64,000 nucleotides of DNA from a phage. Under the pieces are notes generated by a model. It ran no database searches and had not been told where the DNA came from. It worked only from the letters and a program-made list of their open reading frames with translations. Made by a program: the position numbers and the translations under genes. The stretch lies in the sequence record PZ000613.1; one strand, 5' to 3'. Numbering within the stretch: the first letter of the stretch is position 1; each line of letters opens with the position of its first letter. This document shows, piece after piece, positions 18,562 through 64,000 of the stretch.

Positions 18562-19461
18562 ATGGCTAAAATCTTTAATCTGGTAAAAGAATCTGGCTTT
18601 AACGCACTGGCTAACAACATCCGTAGCAATAACGCGGCTATCAAACAAGATGTTTCTAATTTTCTGTTAGGGCACTTACAGCACTTTCGTAGCAACGGCA
18701 AGAAGTTAGATGTATTGCAATCGGCGGTAGATTTTCTGTTAACCGAACGTTTCCGCGATATGGACGTGATCGCCACTGCAATCACTTTCTTAACACCTAT
18801 CAAATATAACACCGAGGCGGCGAACGGTCGTAAAAAGTGGATTAATCTGGAAGGTGAGGCGAAAGCGAAAGAAGATGCGAAAGAAGCGCAGATCAAGGCG
18901 AAAATGGAACAAAACCGCGCTCGCTGGTCGAATGCTTTCGAGAATTTTGCTTTAGGTCGTGAAATTGAAGTGGATAACCCTAACTTCTTTAAAGGCTGCA
19001 ATGACAACGTGGCGGCCCACCTTCAAATACCGGCGAAAAACAAGGAAGATTTTAATCAGGATATTTACGCTTTAGTTGAACGCTTGAATGCAATCCGTAT
19101 CGAAGCCAAATTGCTGGCTGATGAGCGCAACGGCGCTACCAGTGATAACACTATTGCCTTAAGTGAAGAAGTGGGCAAGGTTAAAAAATCTTTCGACACA
19201 CTGATCAAGAAAGTCACGGCCTCAACGGTAGCGATCTCCGATGACTATCTGATGAACGCATCAAGCAAAGAACTGGAGTCACTTGATTCATACGCCGATG
19301 AAATGGAAAAGGCTGTTACAGCTATGCAAGAGAAGTTAGAAAGTCTGCGCGGTCGTATCTCCTCAACGGTTGCTACCCGTACCGAACAAGCGGCGAAAGC
19401 AGAAGAGGAAGAAGTATTGCGTAAAGCGGCTGAAATTATGGCGGCACGTCAGGCGGCATAA
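18562..19461 (+). CDS. hypothetical early protein, Lys/Glu/Ala-rich helical (300 aa)
   Basis: ATG with AAAGGTGA RBS; first sizable ORF after the promoter array; terminator follows. Confidence 0.55.
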   Translation: MAKIFNLVKESGFNALANNIRSNNAAIKQDVSNFLLGHLQHFRSNGKKLDVLQSAVDFLLTERFRDMDVIATAITFLTPIKYNTEAANGRKKWINLEGEAKAKEDAKEAQIKAKMEQNRARWSNAFENFALGREIEVDNPNFFKGCNDNVAAHLQIPAKNKEDFNQDIYALVERLNAIRIEAKLLADERNGATSDNTIALSEEVGKVKKSFDTLIKKVTASTVAISDDYLMNASSKELESLDSYADEMEKAVTAMQEKLESLRGRISSTVATRTEQAAKAEEEEVLRKAAEIMAARQAA

Positions 19462-19483
19462 GTAAGACAATTCGAATAAACAT

Positions 19484-19519
19484 AAGGCGCTATCTTAACG
19501 GGTAGCGCCTTTTCTTTTA
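19484..19519 (+). terminator. rho-independent terminator
   Basis: AGGCGCTATC-loop-GGTAGCGCCT hairpin followed by TTTTCTTTT. Confidence 0.55.
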
Positions 19520-19563
19520 TCAGTGCATTGATTTAGTGCATTAATCAAAGAATCTAATCAAAG

Positions 19564-19791
19564 GTGACGATCATGTTAATTACACATACCACGATCTATA
19601 GGAATCTTGTCAACGGTCAACATTACCGCCTATCTAAAAAGTATGGCGTTGAATGTAAATGTGTTATTACCGGTGAATGGTATCCGTCGCCAATGAAAAT
19701 TGAAACGTTGGAACGTGAAGCGATCAGTTATATTATCACGCAAGAAACAACGCTAGGCCGTATCTTAAGAAAGTTGGGATTAAGAAAATGA
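19564..19791 (+). CDS. hypothetical protein (75 aa)
   Basis: ORF with RBS AAAGGTGA. Confidence 0.45.
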   Translation: MTIMLITHTTIYRNLVNGQHYRLSKKYGVECKCVITGEWYPSPMKIETLEREAISYIITQETTLGRILRKLGLRK

Positions 19792-20012
19792 TATTCAGTA
19801 GTAATTTTGGCAAGTGTCCTATTTGTGAGAAACATCGCAGCACGGGGAATCATCGCAAATGTAGTAAGATACTACAGCGCCAACGCGATAACAGTCATTG
19901 GGATACTGTACACACTAACCAGCGTAAAGAAGAAGTTAGAAAAATGGCTGTTAAAGCGTCGTTTGCTCAATCCACACGTATTGAACACATTCAAAGGTAT
20001 CAAGCATTATGA
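19788..20012 (+). CDS. hypothetical Cys-containing small protein (74 aa)
   Basis: ATGA overlap with the upstream gene; CPICEKH motif. An alternative frame 19807-20019 also exists. Confidence 0.35.
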   Translation: MIFSSNFGKCPICEKHRSTGNHRKCSKILQRQRDNSHWDTVHTNQRKEEVRKMAVKASFAQSTRIEHIQRYQAL

Positions 20013-20218
20013 TCACTAATATTTCAGAGTTTAAGAAAGCACCTTCCCGCTTGTTAGGCCGTCGTGTTGTATACCTTTACAGCAACAAAGGTAAATGTAC
20101 AACCGGACGAATTACAACGGTAAGCAGTGCCAATAAGAAACTACTAAAATTATGCGTAGCTATGGATGACGGTACAATCCTTCTACGTAGTTGGAAATCA
20201 TTTAGTTTACTTGATTAA
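20009..20218 (+). CDS. hypothetical protein (69 aa)
   Basis: ATGA start/stop overlap with the previous ORF. Confidence 0.4.
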   Translation: MITNISEFKKAPSRLLGRRVVYLYSNKGKCTTGRITTVSSANKKLLKLCVAMDDGTILLRSWKSFSLLD

Positions 20219-20287
20219 GTTATTTGTTCAAGCCTATCTCCTTGATGGGCTTGCCCGATATAACTTATCACTGAAAGGAATAAGATT

Positions 20288-20731
20288 GTGGCTAAATCTA
20301 AAATCAGCATGAAGGGCGGGCGTTGTTTTTCTATCTCTGAACTGGAGAAAGAGAAACCAAAGGCAACCAATCACGTTAGCAAGCGTAGTTTAAAACGTCG
20401 TGCTGTAAAGGCTGTGGCTGAATCTCATATTCCTTCCAGTGTGGCAAAACGTGTAGGCCATCGTGTCCATCGTGCTGATGCGTTGTTGTTAGCTGATCAT
20501 AAACGTTCTCTGTTAAAGAGCGGGGGAGCTAAAACAGAAGAAGAGAAGAAGTTAGAAATCTTCTGTAATGGTCGCACTCGAGGTAAACAGAAGTTTAAGG
20601 GGAGCACGAAAGACCCTCAGGCATTCCCTAAGACAAGCCAGTGTGCACCTGATGTTTTCTACGCAGATAGTAAACACAAGTGGGGCGTTGAGAAATACAT
20701 TGACCCCATCAAAGAGGCAAGGGTTAAGTAG
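20288..20731 (+). CDS. hypothetical basic protein (147 aa, GTG start)
   Basis: Lys/Arg-rich ORF with GTG start after AAAGGAA. Confidence 0.4.
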   Translation: MAKSKISMKGGRCFSISELEKEKPKATNHVSKRSLKRRAVKAVAESHIPSSVAKRVGHRVHRADALLLADHKRSLLKSGGAKTEEEKKLEIFCNGRTRGKQKFKGSTKDPQAFPKTSQCAPDVFYADSKHKWGVEKYIDPIKEARVK

Positions 20732-20892
20732 TAGGAATATAGCCCCCCCTCTTTTAGTACTATGACGCTCTTTCTGTAGCGTCGTGCCCTCTCCCCATTT
20801 GAAGCTTCCGCATAGCCGCCTTTGAGCGGCTTTTTGCGTTGCTGTAAGTGCATTTGCGAGTGTATTTATAGCAACGGTCATGTGTTGCTTTC

Positions 20893-20926
20893 AGGTTTGC
20901 CCCGGCTACGGCTGGGGCTTTTTTAT
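20893..20926 (+). terminator. rho-independent terminator
   Basis: GCCCCGGC-TACG-GCTGGGGC hairpin followed by TTTTTTA; a second hairpin plus T5 lies at about 20816-20840. Confidence 0.55.
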
Positions 20927-20973
20927 GCCCGTAAAACAGGAGGTATCAAGTTCTGATAACAACGGCCCAGCTA

Positions 20974-21363
20974 ATGTTGACATTGACTATTTATTATGAG
21001 GCAGGGAATCAGCCAACCGCATGTAAGGCTTTAGTTGCGGATACCGTAATAAATAGAATGGCACAACGAAAACTGACCGCTGAACAGGTGATAAGACAAA
21101 AGAACCAGTTTGAGTGGATTCCGGTACTATTAAAACAGGAGAAACCTTATAAACGTTATGTAAAGCTGATTCGTGATAAAAATCCGATGACTGAGCAAGC
21201 CATTGGAGAAAGCGAGCGACTTGCTAAACGTGCCCTTAAGAAGAATTATGTTCCTCTGTATAGTGGGACTTACTTTCAGAGTAAGAGCGAAGGGGTGCCA
21301 AAATGGTATGCCAATCCTATGTATTGTGGTGATTTAGTGTTCGATAATAGCTCTAGGGAATAA
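20974..21363 (+). CDS. SleB-like cell-wall hydrolase (candidate endolysin or virion lysin)
   Basis: Motifs IYYEAGNQ ... VADTVINRMAQ ... QKNQFEW match the SleB/Hydrolase_2 signature; start codon uncertain (weak RBS at the ATG, AGGAGG further upstream). Confidence 0.5.
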   Translation: MLTLTIYYEAGNQPTACKALVADTVINRMAQRKLTAEQVIRQKNQFEWIPVLLKQEKPYKRYVKLIRDKNPMTEQAIGESERLAKRALKKNYVPLYSGTYFQSKSEGVPKWYANPMYCGDLVFDNSSRE

Positions 21364-21561
21364 TCACTAGTGCCAGATTTGACAAACTAAATTCCTTTAT
21401 AAACCAACCACTTAGTAAATTTATTGAAAAAGATGGTAGTATTCTGGGACTATGGGTAATGCTCTGTATATAGACCCTTTGAAAATTTCTTAGAAAATAA
21501 GTTTACTAAATATAACTTACTTAAATAATATTACTTTTAATCTCTGATAAAGGTGAATAAT

Positions 21562-21858
21562 ATGACTTTAGAAGTATATAAATTCCTTTTTGTAAGCTGT
21601 TTAACTATCAGCGTTATAGGGTTTATTGTTCTCAGAAACAAAGCAGCAAGCTGGGAGAGAATGTATAAATCTCTAGTCCGAGTGGATGAGATGTATAATG
21701 AGAAAGTTAAAGTAACACTCAACGATCTTATTATGCAAGTTGAAGACAGAAACAAACGTCTTCAGAACCTCAACCACGAGGTGTTACGCCTTGCTCGTGC
21801 TAATGAAGACTTGCGAGTGGCTATTGCTAAGCAGCAGGAGATTAACAGTGAAAGTTAA
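21562..21858 (+). CDS. membrane-anchored coiled-coil protein (99 aa)
   Basis: RBS AAAGGTGA; N-terminal transmembrane helix followed by charged helical region. Confidence 0.45.
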   Translation: MTLEVYKFLFVSCLTISVIGFIVLRNKAASWERMYKSLVRVDEMYNEKVKVTLNDLIMQVEDRNKRLQNLNHEVLRLARANEDLRVAIAKQQEINSES

Positions 21859-22084
21859 TATTAAATCCGATCGTACAATGCTTCGCTTAAACAACATGAA
21901 GCCGGGCGTTCTATTTGAGCGTAAAGATTCCCTTTACATTAGAACCGACACCCTGTACGCAGATAATTATGTCAACTGTGTTGATGTGGTAACTGGAAAG
22001 CTCATGCCTTTTAAACGGGATGAAGTCTGCCAAGTACGTAACGATCTCCACATAACCAACATAGAGGCTAAAGATGAAGATTGA
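21848..22084 (+). CDS. small paralog-family protein (GTG start, 78 aa)
   Basis: Shares the L-x-x-G-x-x-F ... V-x-L ... V-P-V pattern with eight other small ORFs in 22074-28669. Confidence 0.4.
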   Translation: MKVNIKSDRTMLRLNNMKPGVLFERKDSLYIRTDTLYADNYVNCVDVVTGKLMPFKRDEVCQVRNDLHITNIEAKDED

Positions 22085-22325
22085 TCTTGAGTTGAAGAGT
22101 CCGGAGCTAAAAGTGGGTGATTTGAAACTTGGAGATGTATTCCAAGTGAAGGCAACATGTATTGACCATTACATGATTGTTCAGCTATACACACCACATG
22201 TATCAGAGACTGATCTTCGGGATGGTTGTGTGGTTCTTAGTTTACGTACTAATCAAGTGATGAAGCTAGACCCAAACTTACCTGTTTCAGTTATCCATGA
22301 TGTAGTAATTACTAATCGGAAGTGA
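22074..22325 (+). CDS. small paralog-family protein (83 aa)
   Basis: Family pattern KVGDLKLGDVFQV ... VLSLRT ... LPVSVI. Confidence 0.5.
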   Translation: MKIDLELKSPELKVGDLKLGDVFQVKATCIDHYMIVQLYTPHVSETDLRDGCVVLSLRTNQVMKLDPNLPVSVIHDVVITNRK

Positions 22326-22633
22326 GTATGTCTGTTTCTTCTTTTGTAATATGCAAACCAACCGTAATAATTCGTGCTCAAATGAAACACTGTTCTGGTG
22401 TCACATATCTAGAGTTCGATCATAGTGATAGCCGATATAATCCCGGATTTACAGTGGCGATTAAATCTCCGTGGTTTAATATGACATTGTTGCCGGAAGA
22501 AGTAGAGTCAGCGTGTCGTGGCATCAAGACGGGGAGTTTGAGTCTTCTGTCCTCTAACTTAGGGGACGAGTTTATGCCTTTGATTCAGAAAGGTGTGGCT
22601 AACGTTCGTAAGATGAAGGAAGCGGTTAAGTAA
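22322..22633 (+). CDS. hypothetical protein (103 aa)
   Basis: ORF with ATGA-type overlap to the upstream gene. Confidence 0.45.
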   Translation: MSMSVSSFVICKPTVIIRAQMKHCSGVTYLEFDHSDSRYNPGFTVAIKSPWFNMTLLPEEVESACRGIKTGSLSLLSSNLGDEFMPLIQKGVANVRKMKEAVK

Positions 22634-23121
22634 CACCGACTTATAGCCCTTGTGTCTATCAGAGGGCTATGTGAGGGTGTTCCTCATTAACTTATTAATT
22701 CAGGCATATGCCACACCGCTAGGGAGAGCTTGCTCGAACATCCGGTGTTAGACTAAAACCTGTTAATTTTCGAAAGACTTTCTGATATGTAGGGGTACAT
22801 ATTGGTTTGGGATTCAGGAGACTTCCTAGGGGTAGGGAGTCTTCACCAGTTGGAATAAGAGATAGCTCTAGAACCTGAACTCTTAGGCAGAGAAGGTCGG
22901 CAATGAGTACGCGGTCAGGATTAGTCTACTGACTAGGGCTATCCCTTATATCAACTGGCAATAATGCCTCCACTAACAAAGAGAGATAGGTATGAAAGTA
23001 TCAACCAAACGTATGAACCGCCCTGAACGTATGGATGCAGTAGCTAACGGTGCTCTGAAACTGGAAGGCTTCTGGATTCATGCAATGTCAGCTGTTCGTA
23101 ACAAGCAAGGCAATTGGACCT

Positions 23122-23331
23122 ATGCCGGTTAAAACAGTTCATGTAATAGGTATGCGAGAAATCATTCGCATTGCCTTGATGGAACACACTGAACGTAACA
23201 TGCAACTAACTCAAATCTCTAAGTGTCTTAATTGCTCAAGAGATGTGGCTAAGGAGTTGATGTTCGCATTCCTGTATAATGCAGAAGACGGGACGCTACA
23301 GAATCATCTGATTCGTGGTGTGAGTCAATAA
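23122..23331 (+). CDS. hypothetical protein (69 aa; start uncertain)
   Basis: ORF ending just before a terminator; start chosen at the first ATG after the upstream small ORF. Confidence 0.35.
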   Translation: MPVKTVHVIGMREIIRIALMEHTERNMQLTQISKCLNCSRDVAKELMFAFLYNAEDGTLQNHLIRGVSQ

Positions 23332-23336
23332 AGAGA

Positions 23337-23366
23337 GGCTGCCTTCGGGCGGCCTTTGTTGTTTTA
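23337..23366 (+). terminator. rho-independent terminator
   Basis: AGGCTGCC-TTCG-GGCGGCCT hairpin followed by TTGTTGTTTT. Confidence 0.55.
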
Positions 23367-23409
23367 ACTAAGGGACAACTCTTACTTAAACTAACAAGAG
23401 GAAGCTAAA

Positions 23410-23586
23410 ATGTCTAAGCAAACAATCAAACATACGCAAGCTGGTTACTCTTATGTCAACTCTCCTTGCTGTGGTGCTCGTGTTAATCTGGTTAAGGAAG
23501 AGGTTCGTATCGTTCAGCGTGGAGCTACTGTTGTTCGTTCATGCTGTGTCTGTGGTAATGATATTTTCATTAAAGGTAAAGTATGA
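23410..23586 (+). CDS. small Cys-rich zinc-ribbon-like protein (58 aa)
   Basis: RBS GAGGAAG; paired Cys clusters (CCGARV ... CCVCGND); stop overlaps the next start. Confidence 0.4.
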   Translation: MSKQTIKHTQAGYSYVNSPCCGARVNLVKEEVRIVQRGATVVRSCCVCGNDIFIKGKV

Positions 23587-23810
23587 ATATTGTTTTAGAT
23601 TCAACTAAACCAAATCAAAAGACTTTCCGAGATTTGAGTGTGGGTTCTGTTTTCTCACTTGATGATTGCCCTTGTGATAGAAAGAAATTCTACATGAAGA
23701 TTGGGGGAGGTTTTTCTGTAAATCTATCACACCCTGCTCATAAACTCTCATTCGCTGGTCAAGTACCAGTTACAGAATATAAAGCAACTCTTAAGTTAGA
23801 GGAAATGTAA
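23583..23810 (+). CDS. small paralog-family protein (75 aa)
   Basis: Family pattern FRDLSVGSVFSL ... VPVTEY. Confidence 0.5.
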   Translation: MNIVLDSTKPNQKTFRDLSVGSVFSLDDCPCDRKKFYMKIGGGFSVNLSHPAHKLSFAGQVPVTEYKATLKLEEM

Positions 23811-24061
23811 TGAAAAACTTCCAAGCTGCACCAATAACTAAAGTGATTGAAGTTGACGGTGTAATGATGACTGTTCCTCTGAACACTCGTTACATTGCAA
23901 TTGACAAGATGGGTTATGTATGGGCTTGGAAGATTAAGCCTAGCTATAACGCATTATTTGATGAGTTTGTTTGTACTGGTACGTACAGTCCTACATTCTT
24001 AGGTTTGTTTGGAGAGTTTGACGGTCAGTATAAAATCATCACTCTCCCTGCTTGTGCTTGA
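23810..24061 (+). CDS. hypothetical protein (83 aa)
   Basis: ORF with overlapping stop/start to the upstream gene. Confidence 0.45.
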   Translation: MKNFQAAPITKVIEVDGVMMTVPLNTRYIAIDKMGYVWAWKIKPSYNALFDEFVCTGTYSPTFLGLFGEFDGQYKIITLPACA

Positions 24062-24068
24062 GGTTAAT

Positions 24069-24245
24069 GTGAGAGTAAAGCAAATCCATAAAGACTACTG
24101 GAGAGTCGCTGATAGTGAAAACCAAAGGCTTGCAGGAATCTCTCTTATAGGTCAATGGTTTGTTGTAACTTCTGCCGCAGGTCAGTATGTTGGACGGTTT
24201 CGTTCCCTAAATGAAGCTATATCCTTTTCTATCAAAGGTTCTTGA
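24069..24245 (+). CDS. hypothetical protein (GTG start, 58 aa)
   Basis: ORF in operon context; start uncertain. Confidence 0.3.
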   Translation: MRVKQIHKDYWRVADSENQRLAGISLIGQWFVVTSAAGQYVGRFRSLNEAISFSIKGS

Positions 24246-24246
24246 T

Positions 24247-24411
24247 ATGATCAAGTGGTTTAAACGTTTCTTCCATCTCCATGATTGGGAGACAATAAAA
24301 GAAATTCGTTTACACATATACAATGAGATCGGTCAAATAGAAGACACAGGTACTCGTTATATACTTCGATGTAAAACATGTGGTCATATCACCAAGCGAG
24401 ATATGATCTAA
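24247..24411 (+). CDS. small zinc-finger-like protein (54 aa)
   Basis: CKTCGH motif; starts 1 nt after the upstream stop. Confidence 0.35.
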   Translation: MIKWFKRFFHLHDWETIKEIRLHIYNEIGQIEDTGTRYILRCKTCGHITKRDMI

Positions 24412-24419
24412 ATAATTCT

Positions 24420-24495
24420 GCGCTCTTAGCTCAATGGATAGAGCAGTAGCCTTCTAAGCTATTGGTTACAGGTTCGAGTCCTGTAGGGCGCACCA
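24420..24495 (+). tRNA. tRNA-Arg (anticodon UCU), CCA encoded
   Basis: Cloverleaf read by eye: acceptor GCGCTCT/AGGGCGC, D-arm GCTC-AATGGAT-AGAGC, anticodon stem GTAGC/GCTAT with loop CTTCTAA (UCU), T-arm ACAGG-TTCGAGT-CCTGT, discriminator A plus CCA. Confidence 0.85.
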
Positions 24496-24635
24496 CATTT
24501 AGGGCTAGTATGGGTGCGGCACCAGAGTTAGTGTATCCCTGTTGAGGCAAGTGCTTTTATAACAGTGGGAATTACTTTCTTAGTGAGCTTCTGGTTCGAT
24601 TCCAGATAGTCCACCAAATCAAATAGGAGGTAGTT

Positions 24636-24917
24636 ATGAGTTGGGGTGGTGTAATATCCTTAATCTGTATCTTCCTTGTCTGCATAGCCCTTACAGGCTG
24701 CGTACAGAGCCGTCCTGATGGATGGTGTGCAGTAGCAGTGGAAGGTATTTGTGTTTCTCGCTGGCACCAAGGCGAGAAGGTTCCTTCTGGTGAAATTGAT
24801 ATGCGTTACAGTGGTATCTCATGTCTTAACGGTGCAGCAGTAGATGAGGAGACTAAAACCTTATCCAATGCTCAATGGTGTGGCGGTTCTGTAACAACAA
24901 CCGGTAAGGAGTGGTAA
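24636..24917 (+). CDS. lipoprotein (93 aa)
   Basis: Strong RBS AGGAGG; signal peptide ending in lipobox LTGC; several further Cys residues. Confidence 0.55.
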   Translation: MSWGGVISLICIFLVCIALTGCVQSRPDGWCAVAVEGICVSRWHQGEKVPSGEIDMRYSGISCLNGAAVDEETKTLSNAQWCGGSVTTTGKEW

Positions 24918-24918
24918 T

Positions 24919-25167
24919 ATGACAGCTCATTATTGGAATACAAAGAAGCTTCTTGAAGAGATGGCTGGAGGTAGTAGGGTACAGTTAATCTCTATGCTTC
25001 GAATGGATGCTCGCTCCTTACGCTTCCAAGTAAAGATTGGTAACTTCAGTGACGGCCTTTATTACACGCTGAAGGAAAGGATTAAGAAGACTCACTTCAT
25101 CATGTACGGAATCAAACCGAGAACGTACGTTAACTACATGTATTGGAATACATGCTACGATAATTGA
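24919..25167 (+). CDS. hypothetical protein (82 aa)
   Basis: ORF starting 1 nt after the upstream stop. Confidence 0.4.
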   Translation: MTAHYWNTKKLLEEMAGGSRVQLISMLRMDARSLRFQVKIGNFSDGLYYTLKERIKKTHFIMYGIKPRTYVNYMYWNTCYDN

Positions 25168-25174
25168 GGTTATT

Positions 25175-25396
25175 ATGAAACTAGACTCTAAGCAGTCACT
25201 TAAAACCGTTGAGCTGTCCACTCTGCCAAACGGAAGTATTTTTGGTCATGATAAACACTTCTGGATTAAAACAGACATCATAAACGATGGATATATCACC
25301 TGTGTCAATCTTTGGAACGGCTCAGTGGATGGCTATCGCCCTAGCGCAAAGGTGGTGCCTCAGCCTGATGCAAAGGCTACAGGTTTGGTTTACTAA
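25175..25396 (+). CDS. small paralog-family protein (73 aa)
   Basis: Family pattern TVELSTLPNGSIF ... ITCVNLWNGSVDG. Confidence 0.5.
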   Translation: MKLDSKQSLKTVELSTLPNGSIFGHDKHFWIKTDIINDGYITCVNLWNGSVDGYRPSAKVVPQPDAKATGLVY

Positions 25397-25698
25397 GGAG
25401 TTCAGTATAAATGAAACTCAAACGAATGCTTTTTCGAAATGGAATGTACACTCTCCGAGAATCCCCTAAAGGGGACACTACAAAGTGGAGTGTAGGGGAT
25501 TGGATTTCATTCATAGATGAGAAGGGCAGCTGGATTCTCGAGTAACAGGAGCCTGTATGAGTTGTTTTGGTGGCGGTGAAGTGGATGACGATGATGATAT
25601 GGAATCTAACGGTACATGTCCTGATTGTGGATGTGAGACGTGGGATGGCGTGTCAGTGTATCCTGCCTGTAGTTACTCACCAGTGATCTGTAAAACAT

Positions 25699-25956
25699 GT
25701 GGAGATCAACCTTGTGACCAGTCTTGTTAGTGTGTTAATAGCCTATTTAATAGGGTCAGTAGTATCAGGTGTTCTAATTAAGATCATAGATGTTAAAGGT
25801 AATCAGTGTTTCAGAGGTTGGGATGGTGAACCAGATCTCGGAAAGATAGCAGCTATGGTTTTCTTATGGCCTATTATTGCTGTACTGTTTATAGCACTTG
25901 TAGCATGGGCTGCCCTTTGGGATTTCATCCTTCCTAACAAAAAGTATGAGGACTAA
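25699..25956 (+). CDS. small membrane protein (start uncertain)
   Basis: Two predicted transmembrane helices; shares an LWPI motif with the 26099 ORF. Confidence 0.35.
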   Translation: MEINLVTSLVSVLIAYLIGSVVSGVLIKIIDVKGNQCFRGWDGEPDLGKIAAMVFLWPIIAVLFIALVAWAALWDFILPNKKYED

Positions 25957-26098
25957 TGACTGAAGAATTTTTAAAGTGGTTTGGTGATACCTTCAAAGAG
26001 TATCTATTCTCTCCAGAAGACTTTGAAGAACTGAAAACCTACACTTGGTTGGCTTGGAGAGATAGCCGACGAAAGTTGAACAAGTAAGAGACGATTAA

Positions 26099-26356
26099 AT
26101 GGGTTTACTTGATATTTTTATCTCAGTTTACTTTATTGGAGTATTCCTTTCTGTTTTAGTGCTGAAACTACTATACAAGAAAGGTCTACTAAAAGGGGTC
26201 ATTACAACAGGGTCTACCAGCTCTGAACCTGATGAGATGATGGTTGTGATCTTAATTGTGTTATGGCCCATCTCAATACTGGCAGGAGTCTGTTATCCGA
26301 TAGGTTGGCTTCTGTCTAAAGCATATGATGCAGTTATACGTTTTATATTTAAGTAA
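26099..26356 (+). CDS. small membrane protein (85 aa)
   Basis: Two hydrophobic helices (ISVYFIGVFLSVLVL, VVILIVLWPISILAGV). Confidence 0.45.
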   Translation: MGLLDIFISVYFIGVFLSVLVLKLLYKKGLLKGVITTGSTSSEPDEMMVVILIVLWPISILAGVCYPIGWLLSKAYDAVIRFIFK

Positions 26357-26596
26357 TATCGTGAAGGATTCTTACGAGAGTCCTTTGAGATAGGACTTCA
26401 GATCTCCTATCAAACTAACATTCATGTAACTAGCCCATAAGGGCGTTACCCTTTAATAACCCAGCCCACTAAGGGGGCGGGAGTTTAGTGCTGGATTGGC
26501 TTTACGCTTATTCCTACAAAGGCAACCGATTGTTAGATCTTACATGCAATATTAACTAATAGGGTAAGGGAGGATTCGTCCCCTCCCCCTATTTTA

Positions 26597-26625
26597 TTGA
26601 ATCTTTATCTAAGCAAGTCTTATAT
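26597..26625 (+). promoter_or_regulatory. candidate sigma70-type promoter TTGAAT-17-TTATAT
   Basis: Follows a GGGAGG...CCTCCC hairpin; about 20 nt upstream of the RBS of the 26647 gene. Confidence 0.35.
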
Positions 26626-26646
26626 AAATGTTTAATTGGAGGATGT

Positions 26647-26958
26647 ATGAAAGCACGAAGAACTATATGGACTCCTATGCAGATTGAAAACCTTCGGAGA
26701 CTAATCAAAGAGTACTCGGTTCAAGAAGTTGCTCAGATTATGAATGTAACGGAGAATGCTGTTAACACAGCTTGCACTAAATTCGGAATATCAAGAGCTT
26801 CAATCCGAGTTAAATGGTCTGAAGAAGAAGACCAGTTCCTTATCCGTAATGCTGGGTTCATGTCTATTCAGAGAATGGCTGACATGCTCGGTAGAAGTTA
26901 TGCTGCTGTACAGAACAGGGCATGTATGCACCTTAACATTAGCCTCAAACTTAAATAG
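26647..26958 (+). CDS. putative DNA-binding regulator with two helix-turn-helix-like repeats (103 aa)
   Basis: RBS GGAGGA; internally repeated segment (VQEVAQIMNVTENAVNTAC / IQRMADMLGRSYAAVQNRAC). Confidence 0.45.
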   Translation: MKARRTIWTPMQIENLRRLIKEYSVQEVAQIMNVTENAVNTACTKFGISRASIRVKWSEEEDQFLIRNAGFMSIQRMADMLGRSYAAVQNRACMHLNISLKLK

Positions 26959-26966
26959 GAATCGAT

Positions 26967-27221
26967 ATGAAAGTTAACGAGTTGAACAAAACCATCAAGA
27001 CTGTGAAACTCCACACTCTAAAGAATGGTGACACATTCCGTAAAGAGGAGAACGGCCCAATCCACATGGTGTGTACTGCGTCGTCTACCAATTGGGTGGA
27101 AGTTGCACGAGATCGAATTGTGTGCGTAAGACTGGAAGATGGCAGTCTGAGTGGTCCGGTTGACGGCATCTCTGTCATACCGGTCAAAGTTGAAGCTAAC
27201 GTTATTAAGGGTTCTAAATGA
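26967..27221 (+). CDS. small paralog-family protein (84 aa)
   Basis: Family pattern TVKLHTLKNGDTF ... VRLEDGSL ... VIPV. Confidence 0.55.
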   Translation: MKVNELNKTIKTVKLHTLKNGDTFRKEENGPIHMVCTASSTNWVEVARDRIVCVRLEDGSLSGPVDGISVIPVKVEANVIKGSK

Positions 27222-27457
27222 AGATTACAAAGAGAGTGGATCGTGTCCCACTTGAGTCCTTAGAAAACGGGGCCGTGTTTAAGCATCCAGACAGTGACAC
27301 ACTCTATGTTAAAGGTTTTGTTCACGGCACACCTAATGTGTCCGTAAATAATGGACGTACTCTATCTCTTCGTCTACATGACGGGCTTGTAACAGCACCT
27401 GATTCTACGTGCCAAGTTATCCCTGTGTCAGCTGAACTTTTAGTGAGTGATTGCTAA
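27218..27457 (+). CDS. small paralog-family protein (79 aa)
   Basis: Family pattern RVPLESLENGAVF ... LRLHDGL ... VIPV. Confidence 0.55.
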   Translation: MKITKRVDRVPLESLENGAVFKHPDSDTLYVKGFVHGTPNVSVNNGRTLSLRLHDGLVTAPDSTCQVIPVSAELLVSDC

Positions 27458-27702
27458 TGAAAATCATCCCAAAGAAAAAGGATAATACGGTTCGATTGGA
27501 AACAATCATTCCCGGAAACCCTTTCGTGGTTCAGAACGGAAGTGCTTCTCCTCAGTATTATATGAGGGTTGAAAATGCTTCTGGTAATATCCGTATAGCT
27601 AGTGGTTGGATTCCTGTAGTGAATCTATTCACAGGTGTGCTGTGTGTTAAAGGTGCTGACGAACAGGTTGAAATGATTCGTATGTCAGTTGTTCAGGAGT
27701 AA
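27451..27702 (+). CDS. small paralog-family protein (83 aa)
   Basis: Family pattern TVRLETIIPGNPF ... IPVVNLFTGVL. Confidence 0.5.
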   Translation: MLMKIIPKKKDNTVRLETIIPGNPFVVQNGSASPQYYMRVENASGNIRIASGWIPVVNLFTGVLCVKGADEQVEMIRMSVVQE

Positions 27703-27704
27703 TC

Positions 27705-27965
27705 ATGAGCACTATTCATATTAAAGTTAAGAGCAAAGAGGAAACAGTCCTCCGTGTTAAAGATCTAAATATGTCAGATGTGTTCACTCTCCAAGAGTGC
27801 CATCTTCAAAAGACTTACATGCTGACAGCCAAGAGTAGGGGCAGTCAACCTGCTGGAGCTGTTAACCTAGGCACTGGAGAACTACGTGTCATCTCTGGTG
27901 ATATGGTTGTTGGTGAGAAGTTTAGTAAAGCTGAAATTATCTTAACTCCACAGGAAAACAAATGA
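27705..27965 (+). CDS. small paralog-family protein (86 aa)
   Basis: Family pattern VLRVKDLNMSDVF ... VNLGTGEL. Confidence 0.5.
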   Translation: MSTIHIKVKSKEETVLRVKDLNMSDVFTLQECHLQKTYMLTAKSRGSQPAGAVNLGTGELRVISGDMVVGEKFSKAEIILTPQENK

Positions 27966-28184
27966 GACGTAAAGCATATTCTTATGACGATATGATTAAC
28001 CAGAAAGGTTTTGGTCAACGACAGCCTGATGGTTCAATTATCTGGTTTGTAAACGGACAGAAAAAGGTAACTAAATAAGCCCTCTTCTCTCCTCCTTTTA
28101 GTACTATGACGCCTCTTTTTAGACGGCCCAATTTGCGTAGGGAATTCCCTCTACGCAGCCATGACTTTTTAAGGAATTTCCCCT

Positions 28185-28418
28185 ATGTCTAAAGTAAGCG
28201 CAATCGATGCAATCCGTCAACCGTTCCAGTTCCAATCCAAATCAACCCAAACCTTCAGTGAACCTAAGCAAATTCGCTTGGGCGGCACGGAGAAAACTGT
28301 GTTCGATCTGGCTAAAAACAAGAGCGTTACCGTAGTTGATGGTGGCACTCTGGTTAACGTTTCCCATCGCATCCGCACTGGCAAAACTGCCAAAGATCGT
28401 GCTAAGAAAGGTCTGTAA
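28185..28418 (+). CDS. hypothetical protein (77 aa)
   Basis: ORF preceded by the conserved 19-nt intergenic motif and a hairpin. Confidence 0.45.
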   Translation: MSKVSAIDAIRQPFQFQSKSTQTFSEPKQIRLGGTEKTVFDLAKNKSVTVVDGGTLVNVSHRIRTGKTAKDRAKKGL

Positions 28419-28669
28419 TGCAAATTTCCAATAAAACACCTCCTGAGCCTACTGTTCAAGTAAAAGATATGACACCGGGAGATGTGTTTCGTTCGGTTGA
28501 ATATCCGGGGGAATTCTTTATCCGAATCCCTTCTGCCTCTGTTGATGGTGTCACTAAGCCGGTAACAGCAGTTCAGTTGAGCACAGGTCATCTCTTCCGT
28601 TTAGAGCTTGACATGGCAGCTATTCCTGTTCCGACAGCAATCCTCCGCTTCGACGGAGACACAGAGTAA
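28418..28669 (+). CDS. small paralog-family protein (83 aa)
   Basis: Family pattern TVQVKDMTPGDVF ... VQLSTGHLF ... IPV. Confidence 0.55.
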   Translation: MQISNKTPPEPTVQVKDMTPGDVFRSVEYPGEFFIRIPSASVDGVTKPVTAVQLSTGHLFRLELDMAAIPVPTAILRFDGDTE

Positions 28670-29058
28670 CATCTATAGCCCTCGTAAGTATCAGAGGGCT
28701 ATGTGAGCTATTCTGGCTCAACTAACCTAATCTTAATATATTTCCCGTATGGGGCCGATGCTAGGGCGAGGAGTGTTCCTCAAACATCCGTCGGATAGAT
28801 ATTTTAAGAGCAGGTTATCCACAGATATTGGGTAATATCTTTTTTTGGATTTAAAGCTTGGCTCTTTTCGGAGAGTCCTTTTTTAAATTCAACGAGAGGA
28901 AATATGTCTAAATTAGATTTAAAACTGCTAGCAGCAGCGGTAGTGATTTGTGCACTAGCACTGGTAACGCAGAGAACATCTGGATTTATTCAGTGTTTCT
29001 TTTCTGGGCAATCCACTTATCAGTGGGTTATTGACGAGTGTAAACAACAGGAGTAAGT

Positions 29059-29421
29059 ATGAATACACGTCCCATCAAGGGCAACGTTAATATTGAAACT
29101 CTGAACAAGGTTGCATCAAACCTCGGTGGTATGTCCAACGAAGAACTTGAGCAAGAACTTGCTTGGATTGCAAATGGTATCACAATTGCTAAAGGTAAGA
29201 TGGCTCGTGAGCAAAGTAATATGAAAGCTCACAAGTATATCATCCGTCGTGCAAACATGTTACCGGATCGGGTTGTACATCTTGCCCGTAAGAACTACGA
29301 AAGTGCTAAAGAAGCCCTGCTTGAAGCAGAGTTTCAGAAGCATCAATTTATGAACAACTATCGAAACTTCCGAGATATTCTTTATATCCGTAAATCGATT
29401 GAGTTGATTAAAAACCAATAG
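29059..29421 (+). CDS. hypothetical protein (120 aa)
   Basis: ORF with RBS AGGAG. Confidence 0.45.
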   Translation: MNTRPIKGNVNIETLNKVASNLGGMSNEELEQELAWIANGITIAKGKMAREQSNMKAHKYIIRRANMLPDRVVHLARKNYESAKEALLEAEFQKHQFMNNYRNFRDILYIRKSIELIKNQ

Positions 29422-29432
29422 AGGTTGGTATA

Positions 29433-49323: not shown

Positions 49324-49641
49324 ATGGCAGACCATGTAGGAAAGAGAGATTATGCACAAGAAAGACGTACCGCAATTGCCCGTGGTGAAACAGGCGTTGG
49401 GAGCAAGAGCGGAGATGCTCAGCGCCACCGTGCACGTCGCATCGTTGAAAAGCGCGATGGAAAAGCTGCTATCAGAGGTAAGGACGTTGGACACAAACGA
49501 GCTGTCAAGTCTGGAGGCTCTAATGCGTCAAGCAACTTACGTGTTGAATCAGTCAGCTCAAACCGTTCAAACGGCGGCAAAAGTGGTGATCGAGCTGGAA
49601 AAGCAAACGGAGCTAGGAAGGGGGCGTTGAGTGGTTCTTGA
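49324..49641 (+). CDS. hypothetical basic Gly/Arg/Lys-rich protein (105 aa)
   Basis: Strong RBS AAGGAG 8 nt upstream of the ATG; an overlapping alternative-frame ORF (49352-49630) also exists. Confidence 0.4.
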   Translation: MADHVGKRDYAQERRTAIARGETGVGSKSGDAQRHRARRIVEKRDGKAAIRGKDVGHKRAVKSGGSNASSNLRVESVSSNRSNGGKSGDRAGKANGARKGALSGS

Positions 49642-50122
49642 TGACACCCTATCTTACGATGCGGTCACAGGTAACCTATACTACACAAGATCTCCAAGCA
49701 AAGGAGCGATGTGGAACAAAAGCCATCCCGGAAAGATAGCTGGGTGTAGGATATCGAAAGGTTATATAGGTGTGTATTTCCAAGGAAGACAATGGAGAGC
49801 GCACCGACTTATAGCTACACACTTTATACCAAACCCTAACAATTATCCAGAAGTCAACCACATTAATGGGGTAAAAGACGATAATCGACTGGAGAATCTT
49901 GAATGGGTATCCGCTTCTGAAAACATACAACATTCCTTTGATATAGGATTGAATAAAGGACATATTCGTGACAATAACGGAATGACCAAGCTATCCTCTG
50001 GAGATGTTGTAAAGATCAAACAGATGTATGTGAAGGGTTCTAGGGATTTTGGCTCTAGAGGTCTTGGTAAGCTGTTTGGCGTGAGCCATACAGCTATACT
50101 CCATGCTTTAAAGGAGCTTTAA
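49631..50122 (+). CDS. HNH homing endonuclease (163 aa)
   Basis: HNH motif EVNHINGVKDDNRLENLEWVSASEN with C-terminal helix-turn-helix-like region. Confidence 0.75.
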   Translation: MVLDDTLSYDAVTGNLYYTRSPSKGAMWNKSHPGKIAGCRISKGYIGVYFQGRQWRAHRLIATHFIPNPNNYPEVNHINGVKDDNRLENLEWVSASENIQHSFDIGLNKGHIRDNNGMTKLSSGDVVKIKQMYVKGSRDFGSRGLGKLFGVSHTAILHALKEL

Positions 50123-60569: not shown

Positions 60570-60605
60570 AAGCCCCTTCCTTTCGGTTGGGGCTTTTCTT
60601 TTATC
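60570..60605. terminator. bidirectional terminator between convergent plus and minus blocks
   Basis: AAAGCCCC-loop-GGGGCTTT hairpin flanked by A-run and TTTTCTTTT; lies between the last plus-strand gene and the stop of the minus-strand giant gene. Confidence 0.55.
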
Positions 60606-63600
60606 ACTCCTTAGGTCGAACTCTTACACGGAGTCTCGATTGACGCTTACTGCGTTCAAGCTTCTCTGACAATGAGCCACGTTTAATCTTCGGCTTCCCT
60701 TCGTCATTAAACTTCTCCAAGAACTGCAAGTACTCAGTACGATTGGTTGTCTTGTAAGAAGGAATCTTAATATCAGGGTTCTCTTCAATTACACGTCTCA
60801 TCTTCGCTACATCATCCCTACCAAGCAATTTACTCTTAGCCTGTTCAGCTGTAGAACCAAAGATCTTCTCCAGTGCTCTGGATTTGTTACCACCTGCGGA
60901 AGAAGCACCAAGTTTAGCAATGGCAGAGTAATCATCAGCACTAAACCAAGCTACTGGATTATCACCATACTTCTTCTTGTTTTCAGCAGCGGTCTGCAAT
61001 GCACGTACAAAGCGACGGTTGTTACCAGCCTTATCTGCACCATGAACCCTGTCTAAAACTTCAGCCACACTGGCTAACTCATCCAAACTCTTCCCATTCA
61101 AGAAAGCTTTCTCTGCTTTATCAGCAAAGGCTTCTTCCTGCTGTTTAATACTTTCCAAGATATCAGAACTTGCTTGAGATCTTTCATCATCAGGCAGAGC
61201 AGAACGAATCTTCTCCATCTCCATCTCTTCCTCTTGCAGTTTCTTAATATCAGAGTCAACCTTCTGAGCCTCCTCAATAGCCTTCCTAGTATCCGCATCC
61301 AAGTTATCAAGCTTACCTTCAGTATCTCCAGTAACCTTAGCAATCTCCTTCTCGATAGGAGTCATTGATTCATACTTCTTAGCGAACTTCTCAACATCAG
61401 CTTCGATACGAGAACGAGCATTCTGATGTTCAGTAGGAGTCATAGGCTTCTCAAGAAGTGCATAACGGTTATCCATATAGGAACCAGCAAACGCTTCAGC
61501 ATCCTCTCTAGATATGCCCTTATCTTCCATAGTACGCATCAGGCGGCGATGAATGTCATCACGTTGACGTTGTACTGCCATAAGGTCATTCTCACGTTCT
61601 TGGGCCGCTTTAAGCTCTTCGCTGCGCTTAACTCTCTTGTCCACATCAAACTTACGGTTCATTTCTTCCGCTTGCTCATACATCTTATTCCACTTAGCCT
61701 GACGAGCATCTTCCTCTGCATCAGTTAAACGACGCTGACGATCAAGGTAGTCTGACTCGGCGTTATGGATACGTTCAATGTAACTACGGAACTTCTCTGG
61801 AGGAACTGGAGAGTTCTTATCGTGGTGAGCAGCCAACTGTTTCAATGTACGAGATTCCTGAGCCTCACGAACAGGTTTAGGTAAACCTTCCATCATCTTC
61901 TCAATCTCACTCTTCTGAGCTGCAATAGCCTCTAGAGTTTTACGTTCATTCTCAACAGCAGCCTTAGCATCTGAACGAGCCTGAGCCTTTTTCCTGAGGG
62001 TAGCAAGACGTTCTTCACGAGCCTGTAAGTGCTTAGCAGCAGCTTCGTACTGAGAGTTCTTGTTAGCTTTGTTGAAGGCATTCACTTCTCTGTTGTAGGT
62101 GTTAATAAACCCATCCCAAATATCCTTCATCTGACCAACTTCCAAAGCCTCTTCCCTACCAGCCTTCTCTGAAGATTTAAACTTCCCATCTACAAAGTCA
62201 TTCATCAGCTTACGCATAGCATCTTTCTGAGCAGGACGTAAAGGTTCTGAATCAATCAAAGTATCAATCTCAGACTGAAGCTCTTTCTTCTGGTCAACCA
62301 GTTTAGGAGCATTCTTGTTGTCGAAAGCTTTGTTCTCTTCTAGAGCTTGTTGATACAATCTATCAAACTCATCCTCACGCTGCTTCTGATATAACCTTTC
62401 AGCACGACGTTTTAAACTATCCAAGTTAGTTACGTTCCCACCTAAACCCTTCTCTTCAGCACGTAATGCCTTAGTAGCAATGTCTTCTGGCAGACCACGT
62501 TCCTTAACCCATTCAGCAAAATTAGTTCGTACAGTGTTGTTCTTAGCAGTAGCAATACCTTGCTGAGAAGCTAGCTGGTTACGAGCCATCTCTTCATGAC
62601 GTTCAGTGTTGATAGCATTATCTTCCTGACGAATACGACGCATCAATTCCTTAGGATCACCCTTATAAGCCAAGAAGTTTTCAGCAGTAGCTTTAGCCTT
62701 AGCAGCCTTAGAGTACAGAGAACGAGCAAAACGTTCTGCACGATCTTTAGTAGCCTGACGAGCAGCACTAGACATAGCAGCTAAACGTTCTACACCACTT
62801 GCCGGTTTAACGTCCTGTACAGCTTCCTTAGGAGCTTTAGGGGCACGGGCAGGTAATGGCTCAGCTTTGACTGTTGGTTCCTCTACGGTTGGTTCTGGAG
62901 CCTGTGCGGCCTCTTCTTGAGCACGTTGCTGCTCCATTGCACGACGCTCCTCTAAAGGATTGCGAGCAGGGAGAGGTTCAGCCTGTGGAGCTTGTTCGAC
63001 CGGAGCTTCTTGAGCAGCCAATGCCTCTTCTTCAGCGCGACGCTGTTCAGCCTGACGGATAGCACGTCTTTGCGCAACTAAATCACGAGCTGTAAGAGGG
63101 GTTTCTTGAGGAGCAGAAGAAGGAGGATTTTCTTCCGTCACAGTACTAGAAGAAGGCTCCCGAACCGGTTCGGTTTCCACGTCATTTTGCGTCTTAAATT
63201 TAATGTCATCAACAACTGGTTCTTCTTCCATCTTAGCACGAGCTTCAGCAGCAGTAGACTTAGCACGAGCAACTTCCAAATCACCACGAGCAAGAGAGCG
63301 GATAGCTTCGCTGTTAGCTTCTTGTTGCTTAACACGTTGAGAACGAGCACGCTGAGAAGAGAAGCGATTCAGGGCATACTTAGCAGCACCGAGGGTGTTC
63401 ATTACTAGACTAGGTGAAGAAGCCTCACGGAAGCCATCATCAGTCAGGGAAGTCCAACCACGATCTTGGTTACTCATGAACTTAGCTGTATTGTTCAGAG
63501 TGTAAGCATCTTGAATAGGATTAAAACCTTCAGGCATACCTTTCAGTTTCTTCAACCCACCGATAGCTTTCTTCATCTCTGGAGAAACATTATCAGCCAT

Positions 63601-64000
63601 CTTCTGTAGTTCAGCAGCTTTCTCTACAAAGTTATTAAAGTCTTCACCATCACGAGCTTTGAATCGATTTGCTTCATTGTAGAAAGTCTTGTAAGCATCA
63701 ATGAAATCACGGTCAGCTTGTGTACGATTCTTAATATCAATCGGACTACCAGTAAAATCACCAGAAGCTCGGAGAGAAGTTAATTCACGATCTAGGTTAT
63801 CTAGAACATCTGTAAGAGCTTTCGTGTTATCTTTGGTGTAGTCAGCCATTGCATCCTTCATAGCAACAGCCTGCTTCTGGTTGTGCTCGTTGTCAGCGAA
63901 TGCTTTACCGCGAGTCTTAGCAGGAGAAGCTAAAGGATTGAGGCCCGGAATGTTGGAATGTTCTTTCTGAACGGAAGCAGCTTTCTCAGCACGAGCTTGG
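60604..64000 (-). CDS. giant charged coiled-coil protein, partial (over 1130 aa; N-terminus beyond window end); candidate internal virion / ejection or tape-measure-like protein
   Basis: The minus-strand frame stays open upstream of the annotated ATG (63861) to the window edge, so the 1085-aa track ORF is truncated; Ala/Glu/Lys/Arg-rich heptad-like sequence. Confidence 0.45.
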   Translation of the reverse strand, partial: QARAEKAASVQKEHSNIPGLNPLASPAKTRGKAFADNEHNQKQAVAMKDAMADYTKDNTKALTDVLDNLDRELTSLRASGDFTGSPIDIKNRTQADRDFIDAYKTFYNEANRFKARDGEDFNNFVEKAAELQKMADNVSPEMKKAIGGLKKLKGMPEGFNPIQDAYTLNNTAKFMSNQDRGWTSLTDDGFREASSPSLVMNTLGAAKYALNRFSSQRARSQRVKQQEANSEAIRSLARGDLEVARAKSTAAEARAKMEEEPVVDDIKFKTQNDVETEPVREPSSSTVTEENPPSSAPQETPLTARDLVAQRRAIRQAEQRRAEEEALAAQEAPVEQAPQAEPLPARNPLEERRAMEQQRAQEEAAQAPEPTVEEPTVKAEPLPARAPKAPKEAVQDVKPASGVERLAAMSSAARQATKDRAERFARSLYSKAAKAKATAENFLAYKGDPKELMRRIRQEDNAINTERHEEMARNQLASQQGIATAKNNTVRTNFAEWVKERGLPEDIATKALRAEEKGLGGNVTNLDSLKRRAERLYQKQREDEFDRLYQQALEENKAFDNKNAPKLVDQKKELQSEIDTLIDSEPLRPAQKDAMRKLMNDFVDGKFKSSEKAGREEALEVGQMKDIWDGFINTYNREVNAFNKANKNSQYEAAAKHLQAREERLATLRKKAQARSDAKAAVENERKTLEAIAAQKSEIEKMMEGLPKPVREAQESRTLKQLAAHHDKNSPVPPEKFRSYIERIHNAESDYLDRQRRLTDAEEDARQAKWNKMYEQAEEMNRKFDVDKRVKRSEELKAAQERENDLMAVQRQRDDIHRRLMRTMEDKGISREDAEAFAGSYMDNRYALLEKPMTPTEHQNARSRIEADVEKFAKKYESMTPIEKEIAKVTGDTEGKLDNLDADTRKAIEEAQKVDSDIKKLQEEEMEMEKIRSALPDDERSQASSDILESIKQQEEAFADKAEKAFLNGKSLDELASVAEVLDRVHGADKAGNNRRFVRALQTAAENKKKYGDNPVAWFSADDYSAIAKLGASSAGGNKSRALEKIFGSTAEQAKSKLLGRDDVAKMRRVIEENPDIKIPSYKTTNRTEYLQFLEKFNDEGKPKIKRGSLSEKLERSKRQSRLRVRVRPKE

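Follow-up and report, generated by a model that had tools for sequence, protein, structure and literature searches.

A ten-base core that matches the nick-site consensus of Pseudomonas phages is invariant at three sites of phiEco32-like coliphages

That phage DNA can carry localized nicks has been known since the 1960s, from the example of T5, and the described systems that are closest to the subject of this report are those of Pseudomonas phages. In the Pseudomonas putida phage tf, 14 nicks on one strand of the virion DNA were mapped by primer extension to 5'-TACT/RTGMC-3'; they can be sealed by ligase, and the two nicks that were measured were present in >90% of the molecules. Substitutions at positions 5 and 8 of this sequence are tolerated in tf nicking, whereas natural variants at positions 1, 3 or 4 abolish it. 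Sequencing reads of the LUZ24-like phages of P. aeruginosa pile up at GTACTATGAC and GTACTGTGAC, and in phage Rembedalsseter each of the 13 WACTRTGAC sites shows a drop to zero in the Nanopore coverage of one strand. Such nick-induced pile-ups can pass for genome termini. A cluster of 61 Pseudomonas phages shows an excess of the WACTRTGAC motif, and the motif was reported not to be enriched outside it. Here, we describe a motif of the same kind in a stretch of 64,000 nucleotides of phage DNA (sequence record PZ000613.1), which is called the window throughout.

An earlier note on the window had pointed to a motif repeated in two intergenic spacers, each copy just after a stop codon, and both parts of this claim were borne out. 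The exact 18-mer CTTTTAGTACTATGACGC is present on the plus strand at 20751-20768 (site 1) and 28095-28112 (site 2). The chance expectation for the 18-mer at up to 3 mismatches was 0.03, and none of 100 shuffles reached 3. Site 1 begins 20 nucleotides (nt) past the TAG stop codon (20729-20731) of the open reading frame (ORF) 20288..20731, ahead of ORF 20974..21363; site 2 begins 17 nt past the TAA (28076-28078) of a 38-codon ORF (27962..28078) and lies upstream of ORF 28185..28418. A search of the whole window recovered both copies; however, the motif was not limited to these two loci, and a third related copy (site 3), CTTCTAGTACTGTGACGG, was found on the minus strand at 63135-63152, with 3 mismatches to the 18-mer and within an ORF of 1085 amino acids (aa).

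The window represents a phiEco32-like E. coli phage (Kuravirus, subfamily Gordonclarkvirinae). Its positions 19000-30000 matched 144 phage records in a megablast search, and the best matches were Kuravirus phages, including phiEco32, SU10 and WFI101126, at 92-95% identity. Compared with phiEco32, the window is reverse-complemented and rotated; the early genes, followed by the middle genes, occupy its plus strand at approximately 15-60 kb, and the late genes are on the minus strand. Sites 1 and 2 are both in the early gene region; the genes flanking site 1 are the homologues of phi32_120 and phi32_117, and those flanking site 2 are the homologues of phi32_94 and phi32_93.

Both spacers were read base by base in 11 genomes of three genera, Kuravirus, Nieuwekanaalvirus and Suseptimavirus (the window, WFI101126, phiEco32, EcoN5, 4E8, KarlSchell, EP335, KBNP1711, SU7, ECBP2 and EK010); phage Paul was read at site 1 only. 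The motif was seen at the homologous intergenic positions of all 11 genomes, and the sole block that was invariant at both spacers was TACT-R-TGACG, where R is A or G. The 19-20 nt of shared sequence described before thus stood as an exact 18-mer within the window, but just 10 of the 18-20 bases are kept across the related phages. In the window, this core reads TACTATGACG at 20758..20767 and again at 28102..28111, both on the plus strand and both exact matches; the site 1 core fits TACT/RTGMC as well as the flanked LUZ24 form gTACTRTGACg, and the site 2 core is invariant at the orthologous spacer. Among 21 instances in the first register alignment and 8 more from four further genomes, variation was confined to position 5 of the core (A/G). 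The triplet preceding the core depended on the genus (TAG, AAC, AGC or TAC), and the bases past the core varied by site and by genus.

Upstream of the core, the 21 aligned instances gave the consensus 'cc.t.tt..a.' at a level of at least 70%, and a pyrimidine run precedes all three window copies, the coding one included. At site 1, the pyrimidine-rich flank CCCCCCCTCTTT with the triplet TAG occupies 20743..20757 on the plus strand and is semi-conserved and variable. At site 2, the tract CTCTTCTCTCCTCCTTT with TAG occupies 28082..28101 on the plus strand; it is kept in Kuravirus and Suseptimavirus and partly in Nieuwekanaalvirus.

In BLAST searches, the motif matched approximately 100 phage records, nearly all of Escherichia or Shigella phages; the earlier suggestion of a phage-specific signal is supported in that the motif is specific to a phage lineage. 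Most records carried two copies, the Suseptimavirus records one match each, and EcoN5 three, from a local duplication. In EcoN5 (NC_070986; 2153-4874 and 11391-13118), the gp89-92 block is tandemly duplicated, which gives the additional copy of the site 2 motif, and the homologues of phi32_125-128, which usually form the start of the early region, are located directly downstream of the site 1 spacer. There was no match to the motif in 5,426 complete E. coli genomes, and a host-derived sequence was therefore rejected.

The third copy was also conserved, within a coding sequence. The sequence TACTGTGACGGAAGA (63131..63145, minus strand; core at 63136-63145, an exact match) lies in the homologue of phi32_26 (ORF 60604..63861), a late structural gene, with the core approximately 720 nt inside the ORF. 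In a six-genome, three-genus alignment of this homologue, whose mean column identity was 79% with insertions and deletions, TACTGTGACGGAAGA formed one invariant run of 15 columns in an otherwise variable coding stretch, and the run includes three codons, ACT GTG ACG, with their four-fold-degenerate third positions. When the site 3 15-mer was used to scan IMG/VR, 54 matches were obtained, mostly chance-like and in unrelated contigs; only 5 contigs (76-78 kb) resembled the phiEco32-like group, and the diversity was not extended.

The window thus has three exact copies of TACTRTGMC, at 20758-20766 (+), 28102-28110 (+) and 63137-63145 (-), and all three have G at position -1 and G at position +10. 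These conserved sites were not accompanied by any stray copy of WACTRTGMC, of which approximately 4.1 are expected in the window by chance. The same was observed in phiEco32, with exactly three conserved WACTRTGMC sites and zero stray copies at positions 8001-77554; the homologue of its remaining left end is covered by the window, a close relative. The lack of stray copies hints at avoidance.

The nine sites of LUZ24 share a single strand; position -1 is G in all nine and position +10 is G in eight, which gives the form GTACTRTGACG, identical letter for letter to the Kuravirus form. Moreover, the only position at which the coliphage core varies, R, is among the two that tf nicking tolerates. 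The agreement extends to the genomes, and the window belongs to the lineage with the LUZ24 core genome: 14 LUZ24 proteins matched the window in colinear order, namely four members of the amidoligase/amidotransferase cluster, the primase-helicase (45% identity), the split DNA polymerase in its three parts, the HNH endonuclease gp30, the 5'-3' exonuclease, the major capsid protein, the scaffold, the portal and the large terminase (40%). Outside Gordonclarkvirinae, the nearest primase-helicase was that of Aeromonas phage BUCT695 (56%), followed by those of the LUZ24-like phages (44-45%).

The motif was also found in Salmonella phage 7-11 (NC_015938; Moazamivirus, Grimontviridae), which is phiEco32-like and belongs to another family. 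Its genome contains 13 TACTRTGMC sites, where chance would give approximately 5.9 matches to the looser 8-variant pattern and roughly half as many to the 4-variant TACTRTGMC; the enrichment that is not seen in the window is therefore present in this relative. Twelve of the 13 sites are on the minus strand, which is sense for the early and middle genes, and 12 of 13 are on the local sense strand. Position -1 is C in 13/13 and position +10 is G in 12/13. Seven sites, all on the minus strand, fall in the early region at 75.9-88 kb (88039, 87012, 86028, 85070, 83748, 79975 and 75918). The published motif searches on 7-11 were limited to -100 to +200 of each start codon and gave other motifs or none, and our literature search found no report of nicks or of a TACTRTGMC-type motif in phiEco32-like phages or 7-11. 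In some copies, the RTG of the motif is an annotated start codon, as in 7-11 gp089 (GTG) and another 7-11 gene (57087 and 83744) and in LUZ24 gp47 (ATG, 25353); the LUZ24 copies have G-rich, Shine-Dalgarno-like bases upstream.

Based on the likeness to the mapped sites, we favour, with moderate confidence, the interpretation that the three window copies are recognition sites for a phage nicking activity of the tf/LUZ24 type. A putative phage-directed, site-specific activity would recognise the asymmetric sequence (A/T)(A/G)(G/C)-TACT|RTGAC-G and would cut the strand that bears it between T and R. By analogy with tf, a ligatable 3'-OH/5'-P nick would be left and would persist in the packaged DNA. 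Cuts are predicted at T20761/A20762 and T28105/A28106 on the plus strand, which is sense for the early genes, and at T63142/G63141 on the minus strand, which is sense for the late gene; each would be on the sense (non-template) strand, and a nick so placed would leave RNA polymerase unblocked. The presence of nicks in the DNA of the window phage is inferred, as are the enzyme and the biological role of the nicks. In 7-11, the same interpretation predicts approximately 13 nicks in the virion DNA. The processing signal that had been suggested earlier would survive only as a signal for DNA processing, with a core that matches the nick consensus mapped in related phages; its RNA form was unsupported.

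Several points weigh against this interpretation and keep our confidence moderate, because nicks in the phiEco32-like phages, including the three predicted here, rest on sequence prediction and because the window lacks two of the features that define the Pseudomonas system, namely placement on a single physical strand and an excess of sites over chance. All tf and LUZ24 sites are on one physical strand, whereas the window has two sites on the plus strand and one on the minus strand. There are 3 sites per approximately 77-kb genome here, compared to 9 (LUZ24) to 14 (tf) per approximately 45 kb, and the 9-mer is not enriched in the window (3 observed vs 2.0 expected for TACTRTGMC and 4.1 for WACTRTGMC). 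The Kuravirus copies have an upstream pyrimidine run and a downstream hairpin, whereas the LUZ24 sites are without that hairpin. The constant placement on the sense strand is equally expected of an element that acts at the RNA level. BUCT695 (NC_070977), which has the closest primase-helicase outside the subfamily and a LUZ24-like core genome, carries just a single WACTRTGMC copy in 86 kb, where approximately 5.7 are expected; therefore, the system is not universal in the lineage, and BUCT695 may represent a lineage that lost it. Finally, no nickase candidate was found, and the sole nuclease that BLAST showed to be shared with LUZ24 is a sporadic homing HNH endonuclease that is absent from the searched part of phiEco32 (8001-58000).

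This HNH_3 endonuclease is encoded at 49631-50122 (plus strand, 163 aa) and is similar to LUZ24 gp30. It is of the sporadic homing type, and it was rejected as the nickase because it is absent from phiEco32, which keeps all three sites; the searched part of phiEco32 (8001-58000) spans the expected position of the gene, beside that of the DNA polymerase. Among all phage records, the ORF had 6 matches at >=95% identity and 56 at 60-80%, and, located upstream of the DNA polymerase gene, it resembles a sporadic mobile insertion. With respect to the presence of LUZ24 proteins, the window and BUCT695 differ only in gp30 and the scaffold protein, a comparison that yielded no further nickase candidate, and Pfam scans of the other LUZ24 proteins and of the middle-gene proteins of the window revealed no clear shared nuclease. 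At the end of the middle gene cluster, the window has two overlapping conserved ORFs (59621-60239, plus strand), and the corresponding region of phiEco32 contains phi32_30 and phi32_31, both annotated as HNH endonucleases. Neither window ORF gave a significant nuclease match in Pfam; one had a weak match to the WYL domain and the other nothing meaningful.

As for the role of the sites, homology between genomes tended to start or stop at the motif. At the site 1 spacer, 15 of the 60 alignments listed start at window base 20752, and at site 2 the end point is 28120 for each of the 14 lowest-ranked rows listed, among them every Suseptimavirus genome shown. This clustering of mosaic breakpoints at the motif suggests a link with recombination, and since the homology blocks start and stop there, our guess is that the role of the sites is to stimulate recombination at the borders of variable early-gene cassettes. 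A more specific version, which we regard as speculative and unlikely, is that programmed sense-strand nicks, through 3'-OH ends or fork-derived one-ended breaks, start recombination-dependent or strand-displacement replication and so drive the exchange of early cassettes between co-infecting phiEco32-like phages. The pyrimidine run, the core and the hairpin would then form a composite 'nick-and-recombine' module.

The breakpoints also speak for an uncut DNA-binding site, although we think such a site unlikely. The core would serve, for example, as a priming site, origin element or recombination hot spot, bound by a protein of replication, packaging or recombination that the LUZ24-like phages also have, and the nicks of the Pseudomonas phages would be a lineage-specific by-product. 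The shared core genes, including those for the primase-helicase, DNA polymerase, exonuclease and large terminase, are in favour of this explanation, and a purine always follows the predicted cut, as we would expect of a primer start. However, one sequence would then need two functions; BUCT695, whose primase-helicase and polymerase are equally similar, is essentially without sites; and the absence of stray copies suits a harmful activity such as cleavage better than binding.

An RNA-level element, which is also unlikely and to our minds a little harder to sustain, has to be considered in view of the hairpins. The motif would act in the sense transcript, together with the hairpin, for example as a place of endoribonuclease cleavage or processing or by binding a phage RNA-binding protein. 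At site 1, the hairpin GACGCT-(8 nt)-AGCGTC (20764..20783, plus strand; arms at 20764-20769 and 20778-20783) overlaps the 3' end of the motif, with the 3' end of the core as its 5' arm, and has a folding energy of -10.5 kcal/mol, in the 1st percentile when ranked, as were the other hairpins, against genome 30-mers. At site 2, a weak imperfect hairpin (28111..28127, plus strand; -5.9 kcal/mol, 10th percentile) overlaps the end of the core; in WFI101126, the site 2 hairpin has a perfect GACGCC/GGCGTC stem (-11.2 kcal/mol). At site 3, the hairpin CGGAAGAA-(8 nt)-TTCTTCTG (63114..63137, minus strand; -8.3 kcal/mol, 2nd percentile) starts in the 3' end of the core, and weaker forms of it were seen in SU7, ECBP2 and KBNP1711. 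All three window copies are thus followed directly by a hairpin whose 5' arm begins in the GACG of the core (p = 0.003), and the stem partners co-vary across sites and genomes (GACGCT/AGCGTC, GACGCC/GGCGTC, GACGCTC/GAGCGTC and CGGAAGAA/TTCTTCTG). This, the location of all three window copies on the transcribed sense strand, and the sense-strand bias in 7-11 speak for an RNA-level function. Nevertheless, the same sequence is a physically mapped DNA nick site in the relatives, and antisense copies exist, one each in LUZ24 (29861, plus strand) and 7-11 (27719, minus strand). Furthermore, the hairpin is missing at site 1 of KBNP1711, 4E8 and KarlSchell and at the LUZ24 sites (p = 0.87), and only a weak tendency toward it was seen in 7-11 (p = 0.02). 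In Rfam, the tRNA-Arg alone reached the gathering threshold in the window, and nothing was found at the motif even at E <= 5, so a known RNA family was rejected.

The earlier note had cited a hairpin after each of the two intergenic sites. Both hairpins exist, but they are not homologous: the one at site 1 is the motif hairpin described above, whereas the one at site 2 is a separate structure, GCGTAGGGAATTCCCTCTACGC (28135..28156, plus strand; GCGTAG at 28135-28140 and CTACGC at 28151-28156), which lies 24 nt beyond the core and upstream of the phi32_93 homologue and belongs to the spacer rather than to the motif. It is near-palindromic, is part of the minimum-energy structure and has no adjacent T run; it is kept in Kuravirus and Nieuwekanaalvirus and is absent from the Suseptimavirus phages SU7, ECBP2 and EK010.

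A transcription signal at operon boundaries, whether the promoter (for host or phage sigma) or operator suggested first or a terminator or nut/boxA-like antiterminator, is improbable in our view. It has in its favour that both copies of the repeat are intergenic and just past stop codons and that site 1 stands ahead of two intrinsic terminators. These terminators (20814-20831 and 20899-20918, plus strand) are separate from the motif, were identified by a terminator scan, are each followed by a T run and are annotated as such in phage WFI101126. Site 1 does sit at a transcription boundary, but at site 3 the same invariant core lies on the other strand, inside a late structural gene. A promoter is not supported either. 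No sigma-70 pair (TTGACA/TATAAT, 16-18 bp apart) overlapped 20740-20790 or 28080-28130, whereas strong sigma-70-like matches were found elsewhere in the window (15213, 17166 and 17613). The promoters for middle and late transcription in phiEco32, which are used by the phage sigma factor gp36, consist of a single tAATGTAtA located 6-8 bp upstream of the transcription start and precede genes 6, 13, 26, 40, 58 and 68; the motif TAGTACTATGACG does not contain AATGTA and is upstream of the homologues of gene 117 and gene 93, positions that are not among the mapped promoters. Sigma-70 and phage-sigma promoters were accordingly rejected. An operator on the 8-bp palindrome TAGTACTA was discarded as well, the palindrome not being conserved across genera (AACTACTA or AGCTACTG in the others).

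With regard to termination, a terminator-like motif hairpin followed by a T run is found in some orthologues (site 1 of SU7 and site 2 of EP335 and KBNP1711), but the motif hairpins of the window have no T run, and the T run is not conserved across sites and genera. The lambda-type nut site combines a conserved boxA (CGCTCTTTA-like) with a boxB hairpin downstream. Site 1 contains CGCTCTTTC, which we take to resemble boxA; a boxA/nut-like antiterminator was rejected, however, in that CGCTCTTTC occurs at site 1 only, and the bases past the core are CCTCTTTTT at site 2, TTTCTCTG at site 1 of KBNP1711 and GAAGAAAA at site 3.

That the repeat has no function, being left over from an ancient duplication or gene conversion that involved the spacers, with a coincidental match to the nick consensus, is very improbable: it would suit the low number of two to three copies per genome and the 9-mer that is not numerically enriched, but 10 bases are invariant at three loci in three genera while the flanks diverge freely, the sole variable position is one that the nicking system tolerates, the strand bias in 7-11 is 12:1 with conserved flanks, and the probability of a chance match (9 fixed bases and the same degenerate purine) is ~1e-4 by a rough estimate that allows for offsets, both strands and dozens of motifs.

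Two further structures were noticed in the course of these comparisons. The spacer after site 1 (20797-20926, plus strand) shows an unusual degree of RNA structure (242 nt, -83.8 kcal/mol, z = -3.74), and the two terminators in it bracket a long hairpin of approximately 18 bp (context 20814..20924). Rfam gave only sub-threshold, small RNA-like matches for this spacer (MicX, 22.7 bits vs a threshold of 75), and the spacer could be a small RNA or a double-terminator module. At the right end of phiEco32 (~77340-77362), the sequence …TGTACAGTGCT|AGCC… precedes the terminal repeat and is like the core (GTACTGTGAC) at 7 of 10 bases, which is probably chance; the repeat boundary …GTACAGTGCT|AGCC… resembles the core loosely. 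The 40-mers of the phiEco32 terminal repeat were not found in the window, and no record end that coincided with the motif, as would result from nicks mistaken for termini, was present among the matches listed.

Compared with the earlier note, there are three sites rather than two, and they share the 10-base invariant core TACTRTGACG. The TACTRTGMC-type nick motif has so far been reported for the one cluster of 61 Pseudomonas phages only. If the phiEco32-like coliphages and 7-11 use the same site, the system would be ancestral to a much wider podophage lineage, and it could be tested in an E. coli phage whose transcription programme and RNA polymerase interactions have already been worked out. 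The three invariant sites, one of which can be altered by synonymous mutation, would make site-by-site genetics feasible, and BUCT695, if it has lost the system, would be a useful negative control in the search for the nickase. Should the proposed role in replication and recombination also be true, these phages would provide the first tractable system for finding the nickase and the function of localized phage nicks. On the practical side, the sites would mark recombination-prone borders, which is relevant to the engineering of phages that are therapeutic candidates, and read pile-ups at the nicks would risk being assigned as termini.

Among the known systems, the PeSL-type cassettes of T4-type phages are mobile promoter-early stem-loop elements that flank variable ORFs. 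The sites described here resemble them in that a conserved intergenic element of short length carries a stem-loop and borders variable early cassettes, where homology breaks; they differ in that a promoter is absent and that the conserved part is a 10-base asymmetric core, which is also found within a gene. The nicks of T5 and BF23 are made at 5'-R/GCGCRGG-3' and those of phiKMV-like phages at 5'-CGACNNNNNCCTA/CTCCGG-3', and those of phikF77 undergo repair early in infection and are introduced again late. These nicks are likewise few per genome and specific in sequence and strand, but their recognition sequences and the phage lineages are unrelated to ours. The sites of 7-11 are closer. They have the same core in the form (A)C-TACTGTGAC-G, with C at -1 as in the Suseptimavirus and Nieuwekanaalvirus copies, and they are biased to the sense strand and concentrated in the early region; they differ in their number (13 copies), their mainly intragenic position and the weakness of the downstream hairpin tendency. 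The closest are the nick sites of the tf/LUZ24 type (Bruynoghevirus, Vicosavirus). Although the present sites belong to phages of E. coli in the subfamily Gordonclarkvirinae and are nick sites by prediction, they share with the tf/LUZ24 type the core of 9 to 11 bases, with G at -1 and +10 as in LUZ24, the occurrence of copies in the early region, some of them in spacers directly past the ends of ORFs, and the placement of the majority of copies on the sense strand, and they do so in genomes that have a colinear core, short direct terminal repeats and convergent transcription units in common.

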